Assembly: GCA_041674405.1 (NCBI GenBank)
Contig: JBAYVT010000003.1
Span: forward strand, 90,001-122,000
Length of the DNA: 32,000 bases
Direction of reading: 5' to 3'
DNA from: Patescibacteria group bacterium
GTDB taxonomy: Bacteria; Patescibacteriota; UBA1384; XYA2-FULL-43-10
Part shown: piece by piece, positions 6,186 to 27,320 of the stretch
Layout: the number at the start of each line of letters is the position of its first letter
Position numbering within the stretch: position 1 is the stretch's first letter
The notes under the pieces: generated by a model
Told to the model about the DNA's origin: nothing
Databases searched by the model: none
What the model saw: the letters and a program-made list of their open reading frames with translations, nothing else
Position numbers and translations under genes: made by a program

Positions 6186-6274
6186 ATGTTTGGAAGGAAA
6201 ATGAACGAGGACCAAGAGCCCAAAAAAGAAGTTTTTGAGGAAGACGACGAATCGGAATGGGAATAAATTTTATA

Positions 6275-7186
6275 TCAGTAGGAATGGGTTGAAAAGAAAG
6301 CCCGAGCTTCATCTCGAGTTGAACTTATAGGCACTCCGCTTTGATAGAGCATCCTGATCGATCTTTGATCATTGGCCTTAAGCCCACCCCAATACATCAT
6401 AATCGGATTACCCATCTCTGACTCTCCCAACCTATTCGAATGGCCCATAAAACCAACCGCATGCATCATTTCGTGCTTTAGAGACCAGCATTTTTCTTCG
6501 TTGCCCCAATCGCTATTATTTGGAAGATAGATTACCGCCGAGGTCATATTCCCTAAAGTATCATTTGTCGTATCCGCAAACGGTAAATAATTACCATTCA
6601 TTTCCCGAAGTTCCTCCATTGTGACCATCTCGATCCTTATCTGCATCGCCGGTTGGTTGGCATCATGAACAATCCTAACTCCTCCAGAATTATTGTTGAA
6701 ATCAGCAATGAACATATCAAGACATTGGTTATACTCTGATAAAATTACGCCAGGCCGCCCTGCGGCATAAATTGTACTTCTCGACCAACGTTTTGTATTC
6801 CTGGGTTCAAATTCACCGATACTGGAATTTGCTAGATCAAGATAGAAATCCAAGAAACTGACAGATGCGGCTGGAGGTGTCGTTCCTGGATTTGATCCTC
6901 CGGAGTTATCTTGTCCATCTGATTTATCACTTTTGGGCGCATCTTTTGTATCAGGAGTTTTTGTTTCCGGATTATCTGCCAGATTTTCAGCCGAGGGTTC
7001 TTCGTTGGGAAAATTTATTTCGATATCGTCTTTTGAATTTGGACCGAGAAAATATGAGCGATAACTAGCATATCCGGTGACAGCAAAAAATAAAAAAATT
7101 ATTACTCCAAGAATGATCCAGCGGGTTTTTTTGGGGGTTTTGGCCTTTTGTTCTTCGCCAGGTTTTTGATCTTCCCTTTTTTCCAT
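6275..7186 (-). CDS. Membrane-anchored zinc metalloprotease (HExxHxxGxxH, metzincin-like)
   Basis: HEMMHAVGFMGH zincin motif and an N-terminal TM anchor (WIILGVIIFLFFAVTGYA). I chose the ATG at 7186. A TATAAT box lies 8 nt upstream. Confidence 0.75.
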   Translation of the reverse strand: MEKREDQKPGEEQKAKTPKKTRWIILGVIIFLFFAVTGYASYRSYFLGPNSKDDIEINFPNEEPSAENLADNPETKTPDTKDAPKSDKSDGQDNSGGSNPGTTPPAASVSFLDFYLDLANSSIGEFEPRNTKRWSRSTIYAAGRPGVILSEYNQCLDMFIADFNNNSGGVRIVHDANQPAMQIRIEMVTMEELREMNGNYLPFADTTNDTLGNMTSAVIYLPNNSDWGNEEKCWSLKHEMMHAVGFMGHSNRLGESEMGNPIMMYWGGLKANDQRSIRMLYQSGVPISSTRDEARAFFSTHSY

Positions 7187-8859: not shown

Positions 8860-10008
8860 ATGAAAAAAGTTCTCGCAGCAATAGCGTTATTGATTACAAT
8901 ATCAATGATGCCCTCGATGGCGTTGGCGGCAGATTTTCGAAGCGCAAAACAAGGACCTCTCGATATTGGAAAAGATGAAGCGGCCAAGAATCTATATGCC
9001 GCAGCCAGCACGATAAATACTTCCGCAAACATTAAAGGAGATTTGGTTGCTGCCGGAAGTTCGATCAACGTGCAAGGTGATGTCGAAGATAGCTTGGTTG
9101 CCGCTGGGTCCAACATAAATGTCCAAGGCAAAATTGGCCAAAATGCAAAACTGGCAGGGTCGAATATTAATCTGACTGGCAATATTGGTGGCGATTTGTT
9201 AGCAGGCGGAGCAATGATTTCCGTTTCTGATTCCTCAACCATTGGCGGCGACTTGATAGCTGGCGTAACGACTCTTTCGTTGAGCGGAACAGTTAGCGGC
9301 AAAGCGCGAATTGCCGGAACGGACGTTACATTAAACGGAAAAATTGATGGTGATACCGATATTTGGGCAACCAATGTAACCCTCGGCGACAAAGCAATAA
9401 TTAACGGAAAATTAACCTATCATTCCCCGAACACAGCTGCAATTTCTGAATCTGCGAATGTAAAAGGTGGAATTGACTATCAAAAGACAGAAAACCAAAA
9501 GCAATATTACAGCAAAGCAAAGATGTTCGGGCTTTTCGGAACACTTGGAATTTTAGGCATTCTTGCAACACTTGCCTTATTGTTTGTTGTCGTTTATTTG
9601 CTGCCCAAAACAAGCAAGAATTATGTTACGGAAATGCTTTCTTCTTTTTGGAATAATCTCGGTTGGGGTTTCCTCACACTCGTTGCCGTACCGGTAGGCC
9701 TAATAATCGTTTCAATTACCATAATCGGGGTTAAACTCGCCGCAATTCTATTCCTTCTTTATGGTGCGCTTTTAGCAGTCGCAGGGATCTATGGCACTAT
9801 TGCAATCGGCGCCCAACTGCTTAGATGGTTCGATTCCCGCCTGAAGGAATTTCGTGTTGATTGGCTAACAATTCTGATAGCGACGCTTGCAACAATCATC
9901 CTTGCTTTGATTCCGATTGCTGGCGGCCTAATTGTCTTCGCTTTCATGCTTGTCGGCCTCGGGCAACTAGTTCAAAATATTACTCGGTTTCTAAAAAGCC
10001 AACGCTAA
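8860..10008 (+). CDS. Bactofilin-like beta-helix repeat protein with signal peptide and C-terminal polytopic membrane domain
   Basis: ATG at 8860 follows AAGGAG. Signal peptide MKKVLAAIALLITISMMPSMALAADF. Repeats read GDLVAAGSSINVQGDV / DSLVAAGSNINVQGKI / AKLAGSNINLTGNI. About 4 C-terminal TM segments. Confidence 0.7.
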   Translation: MKKVLAAIALLITISMMPSMALAADFRSAKQGPLDIGKDEAAKNLYAAASTINTSANIKGDLVAAGSSINVQGDVEDSLVAAGSNINVQGKIGQNAKLAGSNINLTGNIGGDLLAGGAMISVSDSSTIGGDLIAGVTTLSLSGTVSGKARIAGTDVTLNGKIDGDTDIWATNVTLGDKAIINGKLTYHSPNTAAISESANVKGGIDYQKTENQKQYYSKAKMFGLFGTLGILGILATLALLFVVVYLLPKTSKNYVTEMLSSFWNNLGWGFLTLVAVPVGLIIVSITIIGVKLAAILFLLYGALLAVAGIYGTIAIGAQLLRWFDSRLKEFRVDWLTILIATLATIILALIPIAGGLIVFAFMLVGLGQLVQNITRFLKSQR

Positions 10009-23002: not shown

Positions 23003-23878
23003 TTATAACCCAATTTTAACCAGAACAACACCAAAAATTAGGATTAAGCTGCCAATAATTGTTTCAAGTTTTGGCTTATCTTTGAAAAAAATAAAGCTGA
23101 AGAGCAGAGCAAAGAAAACCTGCGATCGAAAAAGCGCTGTGACAATTCCTACGTTTCCACCGCCTATCGATACAAATCCCAAAATATTGCCCATTGCGAA
23201 TAACACTCCCAGGGCAAGTAATACCCATATATTCATTGAGATCTGAGATATTACTGCGCTTCTTCTGGCAAATAAATAAGGCAACAACCCAATGATTATT
23301 ACCATATTTTCTATGAATAATGTAAAAATGACGTTTTTCGGAAATGTTCCTAGAATTGCAATTTTGTCGAAGACTGAAACAAATCCAAGCGCGATAACTG
23401 AAATAAGCATTAAGAAGGCATATTTGTTTTTTACTAGAATTTTGAATGGTTCAAGTAATCCCTCTTTTGCAGTACTGACATTTATTGTATAAATTCCGAC
23501 AAGCGAAACCATGCTTCCCGCCAGAGAAATCAGGGAAGGTCTTTCTGAAAGCGGCGGCAAGAATGCCAGTGTCATGGTGACAATCGGACTCAAAATAATT
23601 ATTGGATATATTTGAGATATGGGAGCATCTTTGATCGCTCTAAATTGAGTAATTCTCGATAGTGTATAGAAAATGGTTGAACATAGTACGCCAACAATAA
23701 ATAGGACGCTGAGATTTGGAATCCCATCTTTGAGAGCAAAATAAGACATTAGGGTAGTCGAGATCACAATCATCGTCCAGAACAGAATGACTGGGTCGAC
23801 TTTATTTAAAATTCTTTTGTTTAGAACAACAAGAATTCCAGATACGAAAGCGGCAGATAGAGCAATATAAAACCACAT
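23003..23878 (-). CDS. EamA/DMT-family transporter
   Basis: 291 aa with about 10 TM segments in two similar halves, typical of the drug/metabolite transporter superfamily. Confidence 0.75.
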   Translation of the reverse strand: MWFYIALSAAFVSGILVVLNKRILNKVDPVILFWTMIVISTTLMSYFALKDGIPNLSVLFIVGVLCSTIFYTLSRITQFRAIKDAPISQIYPIIILSPIVTMTLAFLPPLSERPSLISLAGSMVSLVGIYTINVSTAKEGLLEPFKILVKNKYAFLMLISVIALGFVSVFDKIAILGTFPKNVIFTLFIENMVIIIGLLPYLFARRSAVISQISMNIWVLLALGVLFAMGNILGFVSIGGGNVGIVTALFRSQVFFALLFSFIFFKDKPKLETIIGSLILIFGVVLVKIGL

Positions 23879-23925
23879 ACTTTATTCCAATCAGTTTTGC
23901 AGTTCAGTTTTATTTAATGTGTAAT

Positions 23926-24016
23926 TGGCGGTGGGAGAGGGATTCGAACCCTCGAGACCCTTGCGAGCCTACACGCTTTCCAAGCGTGCGCACTAGACCA
24001 ACTATGCGATCCCACC
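23926..24016 (-). tRNA. tRNA-Ser (anticodon GGA), class II with long variable arm, CCA encoded
   Basis: Hand-folded from GGTGGGA-TC-GCA...TGC-G-CACGC-TTGGAAA-GCGTG-(18-nt variable arm)-GAGGG-TTCGAAT-CCCTC-TCCCACC-G-CCA. An extended -10 box (TGGTAGAAT) lies just upstream. Confidence 0.9.
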
Positions 24017-24045
24017 AACGGACAAATTCTACCATATTTGAAGCT

Positions 24046-24585
24046 AAAAAAGAAGTCCCGACAGCCTAGAAGGCTCCCGGGAGATTCCTCGAAACCTGGA
24101 TCTTCAGTCAGCGTCCGCGGCGAGCCGCACCTTGGTCCCTCCAACCGCTCCCACTATGGGCCTTCGGAGTAACGCCCCTTGCAGGTTTGTTCCTCCCGTT
24201 GGGCTTCGTGCTCTTGGTCTTAACCTTACCCAAGCTAGACACCTCCCTGTAATCTACAGCCGAGATGGAAATAATATAGCTGATCAGATTCAATTGGTCA
24301 AATGAAAGGAACAGCTCCGGCGAATGCCGGAGCTTACGACTTGCGTCCCAACTCAAATGAAGATGAAAGGAAGAGGGCTGCCGCAGAGAGTTTATAGCCG
24401 TGCCAAGGCATCTCTCTGCAGCTTGGTGCAATTCGGTGCTGCAGCCGTTGTTGCGATCATTGCTTCAATATAGGAGTATACTCACGCAGACCACCGACGG
24501 CCAGGCGCTATGGCCCGGCTTGTCACACCATGGGCTACCACCTCCTTACGGGAGGAGAAAAACGGCGACGCAGTGCCGCTTCTCC
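24046..24585 (-). ncRNA. Large GC-rich structured RNA (about 540 nt). Best guess is a divergent or expanded RNase P RNA, otherwise unknown
   Basis: TTGACA-16-TATATT promoter (24619..24592). The 5' GGAGAAG can pair with the 3' CTTCTTT, followed by a T6 run. Many perfect hairpins (24313-24334, 24541-24555, 24380-24422). Blocks resemble RNase P CR-I, CR-II and CR-III: GACAAGCCGGGCCATAG, GCAACAACGG, GGGTAAGGTTAAGACCAAGAGC. No plausible ORF. Confidence 0.55.
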
Positions 24586-24589
24586 AATA

Positions 24590-24771
24590 TTAATATAACA
24601 CTGCAATATGCAGTGTCAAATAGCCTAAAATGGTGTATCCTGGGCGCGCGGCTGGGCGCGCCCAGGACCGGATGGTAATGTGCGGCAAAGCCGCGAATCC
24701 CCCGGGATGGATTGGATAGGGGGTGGTTGCTTGACTTTGGCCGACTCTGGCCTTAAGTCCAGCGGGTATGT
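24590..24771 (-). ncRNA. Second structured RNA module (about 180 nt), unknown class
   Basis: TTGACA-16-TAACAT promoter (24806..24779). A 12-bp perfect GC hairpin at 24638-24667, GCGGC ttt GCCGC, and a terminal CACTGCA tat TGCAGTG followed by a U/A-rich tail. Confidence 0.4.
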
Positions 24772-24807
24772 AAGATAAATGTTAGCACGAGAAAAAATAT
24801 TGTCAAT

Positions 24808-24840
24808 AAAATATACCATCACGAAGATGGTATATTTTTT
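24808..24840. terminator. Bidirectional terminator downstream of ppsA
   Basis: ATATACCATC acgaa GATGGTATAT flanked by an A-run and a T6 run. Confidence 0.65.
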
Positions 24841-24859
24841 AACCACAAAAAATTTATTT

Positions 24860-27211
24860 TTAGCGATCGATAATTTCCGAAAGCATAAGCCGCTTCTCAA
24901 CCGAAGCAATGATTCGCCGTGTAGGCACGATCATATCCGGTGAGACCGAGACAGAAGTTGTGCCAGCCTTCACCATCATTTCGGTGATTTCCGGATATAC
25001 ACTAGGAGCTTGGCCACAGATCGAGCAAGTGACATTTCGCGCACGGCAAGTTTTTATGACGTATTGGATCGAAGACACAACCGCTTCATTTCTTTCGTCA
25101 AATAACGCAGCCAGATCCTGATTGTCGCGGTCTGCTCCCAAGGTTAGCTGGGTCAGATCATTCGAACCAATGGATATGCCGTCAATCCCAAGATCGAGAA
25201 ATTTATCAAGCAAAATTACATTGGAAGGAATTTCACACATCATCCAAAGCTTAAAATCCGGTGATTGGATTAGGCCATTATCTTCCACGAGCTTTTTAAC
25301 TTTTTTCATTTCGTCAACGGTACGAACAAACGGAATCATGAGCCACAAATTTTTGAGATCATATTCATCCCGAACCCTCTTGATCGCATCTAGTTCCAAT
25401 TTGAAAAGATCAGGCTCTTTGATATAGCGGGAAGCGCCACGATAGCCAATCATCGGATTGTTCTCTGCCGGCTCATATTTTTCACCGCCCTTTAAACCTT
25501 TATATTCATTTGTTTTAAAATCTGTCGCGCGGTAAACTACCGGACGAGGAGCAAATGCCTGGGCAATGGTTCGCATACCTTCTACGAGCTTGTCTGTGTA
25601 TTCTTTCCCTCTTCCCGCCTCAAACATTGCTCTCGGGTGTTCACCAATTTCGGCTATCATGAATTCCGCGCGCAAAAGACCAACTCCATCAACCGGTTCT
25701 GCCGCTATTTTTTCTGCAAGATGCGGCTCGGCTAAATTGACATAAACTTTTGTGCCGGTAACCGGAACTTCCTCAGAAACAAGTTTGCCAGCAGGAGTCC
25801 CTGGAGCCGTTGCGACATCTTCAGGGGCCGACTGGCTTTTGATTTTGCCTTTATAGACCAAGCCCTTGCCGCCATCGACAGTGATCATTTGCCCAGTTTT
25901 AAGAACATGAGTAGCGGTGCCGGTGCCAACAACGCAAGGAATGCCCAATTCACGCGAGACAATAGCTGCATGGCAAGTTCGTCCTCCGGTATCGGTAACG
26001 ATAGCTTTGGCACGGCGCATCGCCGGCACAAAATCAGGAGTTGTTTGCTCAGTGACAAGCACATCGCCAGAAACGACCTTGTCTATTTCGTCAGGTTTAT
26101 GAATAAGTTTGACCGGTCCAAATGCTGTGCCTAGAGACGCTGCAGCACCCTTTAAGAGTACTTCCGCTTTCCCGGCATCAATATCCCCTTGTTCTTGTGT
26201 CCCCGGCTGCTCTAATTTCTCATCTCGATTTTCGATTTTCCGCTTACCCAAAGTCGTGATCGGCCTTGACTGCACCATATAAATCTTTCCCCTTTCAATA
26301 GCAAATTCCGTATCCTGCGGTTTACCATAATGTTTTTCGATAAGCAAGCCGATTTTCGCCAGCGCAATAATTTGATCATCGGTAAGTTTTTGTTTTTTGC
26401 GCAACTCTGCTGGAACATTTACATGCTTTTCGCCCTCTCTTCCGGATTTGACAATTTTCCAGGGTTGTTCATTAATTTCTTTTTCAAGAATTTCAAAAGG
26501 ATCTTTCGATATCACGTATCTGTCTGGAGTGACAGAACCGGAGACTAAGGCCTCGCCGTAGCCGTAACCGGCTTCGATAGAAAGTTTGTTCAGATCTTCA
26601 GAAACAGGGTCGACGGTAAACATTATTCCCGAAAACTCAGAATCAACCATAACTTGCACAGGAACCGCTAAGCCAACCTTCATATGATCAAATTTATTGA
26701 TAATGCGATAATAAATCGCCCTTGCCTCGAAGAGCGAGGCAAAGCACTTTTGAACCGCTTCTACCACTTCGTTACCTCCGGTGATATTCAAAAAAGTGGC
26801 TTGCTGACCGGCAAATGAAGCATCAGGCAAATCTTCCGCAGTTGCGGACGACCTTACTGCAACAGAAAATCCACCCAGCTCCCTGTAGTGTTCTTTGATT
26901 TCCTTGATAAGATCGGCCGGCATTTTTGCGGCGATAATTGCCGATTTAATTTTTTTTGCAACATTATTAAGCTCGCGGCTTTTTTCTGGATCGAGACCTT
27001 TCAGAGAACTGATGATTTTTGAGCGAAGGTTTGTTTTCTCGAGAAAATAAAAATAGGCGTTAGCGGTGACGATAAATCCATTTGGTACTGGAATTTTAGC
27101 GTTATATAGCTCACCAAGGTTTGCGCCCTTGCCACCAACCCGTGGAATATCTTCCTTGTGCGCTTCAGAGAACCACAATATAAGCTTTGGGTTTTTCTTT
27201 TTCTTAAGCAT
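24860..27211 (-). CDS. ppsA: Phosphoenolpyruvate synthase (pyruvate, water dikinase)
   Basis: N-terminal ATP-grasp (GGKGANLGE), phospho-His domain GGRTCHAAIVSRELGIPCVVG, and C-terminal PEP-utilizer barrel (GISIGSNDLTQL). I chose the ATG at 27211 after AGGAGGGG; the track start at 27247 is rejected. Confidence 0.88.
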   Translation of the reverse strand: MLKKKKNPKLILWFSEAHKEDIPRVGGKGANLGELYNAKIPVPNGFIVTANAYFYFLEKTNLRSKIISSLKGLDPEKSRELNNVAKKIKSAIIAAKMPADLIKEIKEHYRELGGFSVAVRSSATAEDLPDASFAGQQATFLNITGGNEVVEAVQKCFASLFEARAIYYRIINKFDHMKVGLAVPVQVMVDSEFSGIMFTVDPVSEDLNKLSIEAGYGYGEALVSGSVTPDRYVISKDPFEILEKEINEQPWKIVKSGREGEKHVNVPAELRKKQKLTDDQIIALAKIGLLIEKHYGKPQDTEFAIERGKIYMVQSRPITTLGKRKIENRDEKLEQPGTQEQGDIDAGKAEVLLKGAAASLGTAFGPVKLIHKPDEIDKVVSGDVLVTEQTTPDFVPAMRRAKAIVTDTGGRTCHAAIVSRELGIPCVVGTGTATHVLKTGQMITVDGGKGLVYKGKIKSQSAPEDVATAPGTPAGKLVSEEVPVTGTKVYVNLAEPHLAEKIAAEPVDGVGLLRAEFMIAEIGEHPRAMFEAGRGKEYTDKLVEGMRTIAQAFAPRPVVYRATDFKTNEYKGLKGGEKYEPAENNPMIGYRGASRYIKEPDLFKLELDAIKRVRDEYDLKNLWLMIPFVRTVDEMKKVKKLVEDNGLIQSPDFKLWMMCEIPSNVILLDKFLDLGIDGISIGSNDLTQLTLGADRDNQDLAALFDERNEAVVSSIQYVIKTCRARNVTCSICGQAPSVYPEITEMMVKAGTTSVSVSPDMIVPTRRIIASVEKRLMLSEIIDR

Positions 27212-27246
27212 GCCCCTCCTACCCGCTCCGCGGGGAAATCTAATCA

Positions 27247-27320
27247 CTAAATCCTAAACTCTAAATATGTTTTGAAATTGATTTTTGTATTTCGAATTTG
27301 TTAAAAATTTAGGATTTAGG
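27247..27320 (-). promoter_or_regulatory. ppsA 5'-leader inverted repeat (CCTAAATCCTAAA ... TTTAGGATTTAG)
   Basis: 12-bp complementary arms at 27247-27258 and 27308-27320, downstream of the extended -10 box TGGTACAAT (27349..27341). The arm sequence is the same as in the rpoD leader. Confidence 0.5.

Follow-up and report, generated by a model that had tools for sequence, protein, structure and literature searches.

A candidate lineage-restricted small RNA with Shine-Dalgarno-like and anti-Shine-Dalgarno-like elements between ppsA and a tRNA-Ser gene of a Patescibacteria genome

What is encoded by the GC-rich block that separates ppsA from a tRNA-Ser(GGA) gene in the genome of a Patescibacteria group bacterium (GenBank assembly GCA_041674405.1)? 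The DNA analyzed here, which we call the window, is a stretch of 32,000 nucleotides (contig JBAYVT010000003.1, positions 90,001 to 122,000 of the forward strand), and coordinates count from its first nucleotide unless a homologous locus is named. It also forms part of the metagenome contig k141_137659 (152 kb) of ENA ERZ27247358, with an identical sequence in Logan SRR6484325. The block (24046-24585) lies in an 844-nt spacer that contains no Pfam-recognisable gene. A preliminary description made from the DNA letters alone noted that it is richer in GC than its surroundings, as is indeed the case (0.50-0.57 over 24000-24800 versus 0.31-0.43 in the flanks), and took it for a single structured RNA of about 540 nt, either a divergent RNase P RNA or an unclassified large noncoding RNA. 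To our knowledge, few noncoding RNAs beyond rRNA, tRNA, and housekeeping RNAs have been described in the candidate phyla radiation (CPR)/Patescibacteria. In such small genomes, a constrained RNA bounded by a promoter and a terminator would offer a helpful first entry point to post-transcriptional regulation.

The GC-rich block is a real feature that was misread, being neither an RNase P RNA nor a 540-nt ornate RNA. On balance, we favor the view that it comprises two adjacent minus-strand transcription units, namely a structured small RNA (sRNA) at 24585-24297, termed sRNA1, that would act as a regulator by mimicry of Shine-Dalgarno (SD) and anti-SD sequences, and a window-specific cassette at 24301-24046. 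Comparison with just two relatives was sufficient to split this tRNA-adjacent, GC-rich, and hairpin-rich block into a row of small units.

The relatives are the loci L027 and L030 of uncultured Berkelbacteria-like bacteria, whose ppsA genes are 84-86% identical to that of the window (another locus, L028, equals L027 bar one single-nucleotide polymorphism). By using nhmmer, the sequences downstream of ppsA in L027 and L030 were connected to the window and to one another, and in both relatives the matching sequence also resides between ppsA and tRNA-Ser. A profile constructed from the three sequences extends over 24585-24297 of the window (minus strand), 2627-2904 of L030, and 6295-6526 of L027. 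The earlier notion of one RNA of about 540 nt is contradicted by this limit to the homology and by the folding of the 3′ portion described below. The fallback proposal of an unclassified structured noncoding RNA on the minus strand holds, albeit for a length of about 289 nt and not 540. Because the terminator of L027 runs straight into the promoter and gene of tRNA-Ser, the 3′-terminal ~250 nt of the block in the window are extra sequence.

The sRNA1 unit is bounded by recognizable signals. Upstream lies the promoter that had been pointed out previously, a sigma-70-like TTGACA-16-TGtTATATT at 24619-24592 (minus strand) with 11 of 12 consensus matches plus a TG extension. The 3′ end carries a terminator-like hairpin, AGCUCCGGC-AUUC-GCCGGAGCU (24334-24313), which is one of two perfect hairpins that the preliminary description had correctly recognized, and this is followed by GUUCCUUUCAUUU (the entire element spanning 24334-24300, minus strand). 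The corresponding promoter and terminator are found at 6266-6293 and 6489-6520 (with the tail CAUUUG) in L027, and a promoter and a terminator-like site are found at 2598-2625 and 2871-2896 in L030. Such sites, which in every case are matches to consensus only, flank sRNA1 at equivalent relative positions in all three genomes. All promoter-like and terminator-like sites within 23500-25200 of the window are on the minus strand without exception, in agreement with the orientation originally proposed, and we infer that both units are transcribed from this strand.

A separate feature of the sRNA1 promoter is a perfect dyad, ACACTGCA-TAT-TGCAGTGT (24616-24598, minus strand), that fills its spacer. 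Dyads of other sequence are evident by eye in the promoters of homologous loci (GACAAA..TTTGTC in the more distant locus L018 and AAAATATTTT in L030), and the dyad GCACCAC..GTGGTGC in the L027 promoter also serves as the ppsA terminator. The dyad of the window could be an operator, or it could be an upstream terminator that overlaps the promoter.

Two observations argue that sRNA1 is under functional constraint rather than drifting. First, the predicted folds were compared with those of dinucleotide shuffles, yielding z -3.85 for sRNA1 (5′ 290 nt; 0 of 200 shuffles as good), -4.35 for L027, and -2.67 for L030. The 3′ 221 nt of the block give z -0.45, which is no better than shuffles, and the value for the whole 551 nt (about -2.3 on both strands) is uninformative. 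Second, identity at the fourfold-degenerate sites of ppsA in the three genomes is just 37-41%, which is near saturation, yet blocks of sRNA1 are retained. These include AGCAAUGAUCGCAACAACGG (24464-24445, minus strand), which is identical to L030 at 19 of 20 nt, the sequence GGAGGUGAU, and GCGAACAGCA(A/G)UCAU, which is common to L030 and L027. Retention of these blocks while neutral sites approach saturation therefore points to purifying selection. A cluster of GC-rich hairpins at 24519-24478 (minus strand) is a window-specific insertion, missing from L030 and L027. With its own promoter and intrinsic terminator on one strand (as consensus matches) and with conservation above neutral, sRNA1 has the general attributes of a bacterial sRNA, and as judged from its sequence it is an unclassified, lineage-restricted, and structured one.

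The three RNAs have a common anatomy that consists, in order, of a 5′ hairpin, an SD-like hairpin, the sequence ACUCCU, a helix that we call S5, the sequence CAGC, a CU-rich tract, and the terminator. In the minimum free energy (MFE) structure for the window, the 5′-terminal hairpin forms 11 bp (GGAGAAGCGGC...GCCGUUUUUCUCC, 24585-24554, minus strand). It had been suggested that GGAGAAG at the 5′ end (24585-24579) pairs with the 3′ end of the block, and although both motifs are present, this pairing is not upheld: GGAGAAG pairs locally within the 11-bp hairpin, and CUUCUUUUUU (24055-24046) serves as the U-tail behind the stem of the 3′ terminator. A second long-range pairing put forward at the same time, GACA[A]GCC with GGCTGTC, meets a similar fate. 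Its two strands do exist as GACAAGCC (24524-24517) and GGCUGUC (24066-24060), but the latter resides inside the stem of the 3′ terminator.

The most conserved element of sRNA1 is the SD-like hairpin (24555-24537, minus strand), the other perfect hairpin noted at the outset, in which an anti-SD-like CCUCC and a GGAGG form a stem (24555-24541) closed by the 5-nt loop CGUAA. The CCUCC strand, identical in sequence to the core of the 16S anti-SD, sequesters an extended GGAGGUG(A/G)U. Within it, the SD-like run UAAGGAGGUG (24548-24539) complements the last 10 nt of Escherichia coli 16S rRNA, and with the runs of L027 (GGAGGUGAU) and L030 (AGGAGGUGAU) included, the complementarity covers about the last 9-10 nt. 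The geometry of a 5-bp stem and a 5-nt loop is identical in the window, L030, and L027, where CUUCC replaces CCUCC. Where GGAGG adjoins the start of a native gene of the window, the sequence is AAGGAGG(N3-5)AUG, as read from the sequence listing, without continuation into UGAU; the SD-like element of the sRNA1 family does continue. No conserved ORF (open reading frame) follows the SD-like run: only AUG-GUN-UGA is present in the window and in L027, and the 13 codons of L030 start 2 nt past GGAGG. In L018, whose ppsA is 65% identical, a related 5′ element is discernible by eye (GGAAGGUGGUGAUAGCC..UGGUG, and later GUCACCUCC).

Helix S5 is the 11-bp pairing of GCUGCAGAGAG (24422-24412) with CUCUCUGCGGC (24390-24380), followed by CAGC. 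As had been argued previously, it supports the minus orientation, since it contains a U-G pair that the plus strand would turn into A-C. The equivalent place is taken by a helix with another sequence in L027 (GUUCGCAGG/CCUGCGAAC) and in L030 (GUaCGCGGG/CCCGCGaAC). The consensus structures that RNAalifold derived from MAFFT alignments are weak. Farther downstream is the CU-rich, anti-SD-like tract CCCUCUUCCUUUCAUCUUCAUUU (24377-24355, minus strand), which is unpaired in the MFE structure for the window. Its core CUUCCUU (24373-24367) is able to pair with AAGGAGG (24547-24541) of the SD-like run, and the equivalent tract reads CCUCCUU in L030 and CCUCCG in L027. Long-range SD:anti-SD pairing of 6-7 bp is therefore possible in all three sequences.

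This SD/anti-SD design suggests a link to translation, from which we infer the following mechanism. The CU-rich tract would pair with the ribosome-binding sites of target mRNAs and thereby occlude them, the 5′-proximal SD-like element may engage 30S subunits such that the RNA is stabilized, and intramolecular SD:anti-SD pairing might gate access to either activity. Precedents exist for each part. C-rich seeds of sRNAs in Firmicutes, such as the Rsa RNAs and RsaE/RoxS, occlude the ribosome-binding sites of mRNAs. Like these RNAs, sRNA1 has its own promoter, an intrinsic terminator, and pyrimidine-rich tracts complementary to GGAGG; unlike them, it is longer (~290 nt), includes an extended SD-like element for which its own anti-SD-like tracts are pairing partners, and shows no sequence relation. 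A UCCC motif has been described in Staphylococcus aureus Rsa RNAs (PMC2790875). Two other reports describe ribosomes at a strong SD that block RNase J1 on the Bacillus subtilis hbs mRNA (PMC5737220) and an interaction between the 5′ and 3′ untranslated regions (UTRs) of S. aureus icaR mRNA (PMC3868564). A strong SD-like sequence is shared with STAB-SD, hbs, and icaR; in sRNA1 it is situated about 40 nt from the predicted 5′ end and serves no conserved ORF. By analogy with STAB-SD and hbs, this element could bind 30S subunits and confer stability. The possible long-range contact between SD-like and anti-SD-like sequences resembles the icaR type of pairing, and by the same analogy, internal pairing could act as a gate. 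However, STAB-SD, hbs, and icaR are parts of mRNAs, and no conserved ORF is present downstream in sRNA1.

Several points count against this interpretation. The SD-like hairpin is kept in three of four sequences with 85% of cells paired, but this conservation comes without compensatory change (0 compensatory pairs), and the comparison of S5 hangs on a structure-guided alignment of three sequences. The long-range SD:anti-SD pairing is weak evidence because the hairpins reuse the words CCUCC and GGAGG, which makes such pairing automatic. Read-through from sRNA1 into the 3′ cassette is possible because the U-tract of the internal terminator is interrupted. Moreover, there are only three distinct homologues plus the match by eye to the 5′ part of L018. 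No RNA homologue was detected by nhmmer at 18 GTDB ppsA loci (44-74% identity), none was detected at four further ppsA relatives (73-74%), and sRNA1 was likewise not detected at any of 19 metagenome loci recovered with the 5′-terminal 28 nt of tRNA-Ser as a probe. The EamA relatives (78-84% identity) likewise lack an sRNA1 homologue; in these synteny is lost, unlike the ppsA relatives at 84-86% identity, which retain the gene order. Scans of viral contigs with sRNA1 blocks gave one chance match inside a phage gene, and a plasmid BLAST search gave no match. The genomes with the closest ppsA belong to Candidatus Berkelbacteria and other Patescibacteria metagenome-assembled genomes (identity at most 74%).

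The second unit of the block, which we call the 3′ cassette (24301-24046, minus strand), is specific to the window and has no equivalent in L027. It begins with a promoter-like site, TTGACC-17-TATATT (24301-24273, 10 of 12 matches), and ends with an intrinsic terminator that forms in the MFE structure, UCCCGGGAGCC-UUCU-AGGCUGUCGGGA followed by the U-tail identified above (24082-24046). Neither the window nor any of the other loci contains a repeat copy of the spacer region, the cassette included. Contrary to the initial statement that the block is free of ORFs, a mechanical ORF of 107 amino acids spans 24431-24108 (minus strand), and within it an SD-like GGGAGGUG (24247-24240) and 6 more nt precede a 41-codon ORF running from TTG at 24233 to TGA at 24108. 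No other ORF of 10 or more codons in the spacer has an SD in front of it. Its predicted 41-amino-acid product, MGKVKTKSTKPNGRNKPARGVTPKAHSGSGWRDQGAARRGR, is very basic and hydrophilic, and it matches no Pfam, NCBIfam, or PADLOC family. Coding by this ORF is possible from its sequence, albeit doubtful.

Could the block instead encode one mRNA of about 540 nt? In this case, sRNA1 would be a structured leader, and its attenuator-like hairpin (24334-24313) and SD/anti-SD switch would control translation of, or read-through into, the 41-codon ORF. The SD-like sequence of the ORF and its strong terminator fit such an arrangement, as does the interrupted U-tract of the internal terminator. In addition, the L018 spacer opens with the similar element seen by eye (GGAAGGUGGUGAUAGCC..UGGUG) and leads, without any obvious internal terminator, into a 62-codon ORF preceded by an SD, and the peptides of the window and of this syntenic L018 ORF exhibit marginal similarity (shuffle p = 0.036). 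However, BLASTP yields no alignment of the two peptides, a search with the L018 peptide returned only that peptide, and phmmer finds no homologue of the window peptide among 1.84 billion representative proteins. The ORF is also unlike native genes both in codon usage, with a codon log-likelihood of -0.06 per codon (the best of three frames) versus 0.17-0.39, and in its spacing from GGAGG to the start codon, which is 8 nt versus 3-5 nt at native starts as read from the listing. Finally, L027 has the RNA and a good terminator but no ORF before the tRNA, and in the window the 10/12 promoter-like site separates the two parts. We therefore regard a leader mRNA as unlikely, while taking it seriously.

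The cassette also invites comparison with type I toxin mRNAs such as AapA1/IsoA1 of Helicobacter pylori, in which the SD is sequestered. The likeness consists of a structured transcript, an upstream CU-rich anti-SD, and a small ORF nearby. In contrast to such systems, the 41-amino-acid peptide is basic and hydrophilic and is no membrane toxin, the ORF is missing in L027, and the region 23500-25200 has no plus-strand promoter-like site that could serve as an antisense promoter.

A further feature of the window RNA is its complementarity to 16S rRNA. Between 24548 and 24350 (minus strand), it includes exact complements of four conserved segments of the E. coli 16S rRNA that are colinear with it: GUCACACCAUGGG is matched by a 13-mer, AACUCAAAUGAA by a 12-mer, GGUGCUGCA by a 9-mer, and the 3′ terminus over 10 nt. 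Among 300 shuffles, the colinear chain scored as highly in 2 cases for the window and in 7 for L027; the score is not significant for L030, for L018, or for the opposite orientation. Note that this comparison is post hoc and uses the E. coli 16S rRNA as its reference. The idea of a 16S relic or an antisense-16S RNA is suggestive for the window and L027, but the SD itself makes up part of the chain score.

These matches bear on the proposal that the block is a nonfunctional remnant, left at a variable site by a decayed gene, mobile DNA, or a fragment of rRNA; it would contain GC-rich hairpins, and its promoter-like sites would be due to chance. In the plus-strand reading, the RNA of the window matches conserved 16S segments colinearly, although the chain is significant only in the window and L027 and is partly due to the SD, and the homologues do not retain the 12-mer at the position that aligns with it. 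The spacer is indeed highly variable among relatives, ranging from 136 to 844 nt with varying content, including a repeat element in L003 and GIY-YIG ORFs beside the same tRNA elsewhere, and two of the units, namely the 3′ cassette and the one that precedes sRNA1, occur only in the window. Nevertheless, blocks, promoter and terminator positions, and hairpin geometry have been kept even though neutral sites approach saturation, all three homologues have strong fold z-scores, and CPR genomes are compact. A remnant of this kind thus appears distinctly unlikely.

A more speculative proposal retains function but changes the target. Here sRNA1 would be a CPR-specific ribosome-targeting RNA that serves as a sponge or as a hibernation or assembly factor. 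Its SD-like run, complementary to the last 9-11 nt of 16S rRNA, would dock on the 30S subunit, and the adjacent CCCAUGGUGUGAC, which complements the conserved GUCACACCAUGGG strand at the decoding center, would dock as well. Alternatively, AUCA..CCUCC could mimic the 16S 3′ end and titrate the factor that binds there. This proposal would be considerably more interesting if true, but we judge it to be a long shot.

To compare the block with established RNA classes, covariance models from Rfam 15 were applied at the gathering threshold to the whole window and at E ≤ 10 to both strands of 23800-24900. At the gathering threshold, only tRNA passes. At E ≤ 10, nothing but noise is evident, with no match to RNase P, tmRNA, SRP, 6S, GOLLD, ROOL, OLE, HEARO, or raiA RNA, such that the search advocated in the preliminary description associates the block with no known family. 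The homologous loci L027 and L030 likewise match neither RNase P nor any other known family at E ≤ 10, and in the window ARAGORN reports tRNA-Ser only, with no tmRNA.

The GOLLD and ROOL RNAs are often located near tRNA genes, and sRNA1 resembles these RNAs, as well as OLE, HEARO, and raiA, in being a noncoding and strongly structured RNA without an assigned function. A novel tRNA-associated ornate RNA of about 540 nt is nonetheless very improbable, despite a GC-rich and hairpin-rich block that adjoins a tRNA gene and belongs to no known family. The conserved core does not exceed 289 nt (232-289 nt among the homologues), its distribution is confined to three or four closely related genomes, the 3′ part is missing from L027 and is not unusually structured, and internal promoter-like and terminator-like signals divide the block. 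The large, covarying, multi-helix core that typifies the five classes is not seen among the three distinct sequences, and nothing ties the block to GOLLD-type or ROOL-type RNAs.

We discount almost entirely the suggestion of a divergent RNase P RNA, which has in its favor a roughly comparable size if the whole 540 nt is counted, a position beside a tRNA gene, and the character of a GC-rich structured RNA from an independent gene in an AT-richer genome, because no RNaseP_bact_a or RNaseP_bact_b model is matched at E ≤ 10 in the window, L027, or L030, because the P4 strands CR-I (GGAAAGUCCGG, ≤2 mismatches) and CR-V (ACAGAANCCGGCUUA, ≤3 mismatches) are unmatched on either strand of 24017-24860, and because the conserved unit is only 232-289 nt, with the remainder being a separate cassette. 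The blocks that had seemed to resemble CR-I, CR-II, and CR-III thus have no counterpart among Rfam matches, and the homologues (232 and 280 nt) share with the window only the SD-like hairpin, one helix, the CU tract, and the terminator, with no P4 element and no RNase P core architecture. A full-text literature search on RNase P RNA or 6S RNA in CPR/Patescibacteria found nothing.

On the minus strand, the genes are arranged in the order ftsK, a rodZ-like gene, recA, recX, ppsA (27247-24860), the spacer, tRNA-Ser(GGA) (24016-23926, identified by both Rfam and ARAGORN), a gene for an EamA transporter, and def. The tRNA gene has an extended -10 element of its own, TGGTAGAAT (24034-24026, minus strand). 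At 795 amino acids, the mechanical ppsA ORF, which opens with GTG, exceeds the deposited protein (783 amino acids) by 12 codons (27211-27247, minus strand); an AGGAGG located a few nt upstream of the ATG near 27211 is consistent with the shorter version.

A third small unit, at 24806-24626 (minus strand), is flanked by the terminator of ppsA (24840-24808) and by sRNA1. Its promoter-like site reads TTGACA-16-TAACAT (24806-24779), and its predicted RNA of ~147 nt (fold z -5.62) ends with a 13-bp GC hairpin (24666-24639) followed by AUACACCAUUUU. Neither a homologue nor a second copy of this unit is present among the loci examined.

Other Berkelbacteria with ppsA 74% identical to that of the window carry two different small units between ppsA and tRNA-Ser (L003 6504-6956, L053 3968-4267, and L054 4029-4333), and each of these has a promoter-like site at one end and a terminator at the other. 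Profiles made from these units do not detect the window, and the units have no detectable homology to those of the window. The members of the first-unit family have GCCAUCAUC in common directly before the terminator, and several units have hairpins of SD-like and anti-SD-like sequence (for example, GGAAGGUGG..CCACCUUCC in L054). In L003, the second unit is interrupted by an element of ~170 nt (6732-6900) with flanking inverted repeats, which recurs in inverted orientation at 9314-9482, about 2.5 kb away (nhmmer E = 2e-43), and which looks like a miniature inverted-repeat transposable element (MITE).

A different type of insertion is apparent at metagenome loci where a short GIY-YIG-like ORF, very roughly 100 amino acids by eye, lies directly upstream of tRNA-Ser(GGA) (L039, L040, L042, L043, L046, and L048). 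In L039, L043, and L046, part of the 5′ end of the tRNA is repeated ahead of this ORF and has a hairpin inserted into it (GGTGGGATCGCATAG-CCCCAAAGGGGACCCTTAGGGT-TTGGCCTAGTC in L043), and a similar duplicated 5′ fragment occurs in L037, with no GIY-YIG-like ORF evident. These loci look like the products of a homing-endonuclease-type insertion, with the 5′ half of the tRNA being duplicated or interrupted in the process. A GIY-YIG gene encoding 93 amino acids is also found in L027, between recA and recX.

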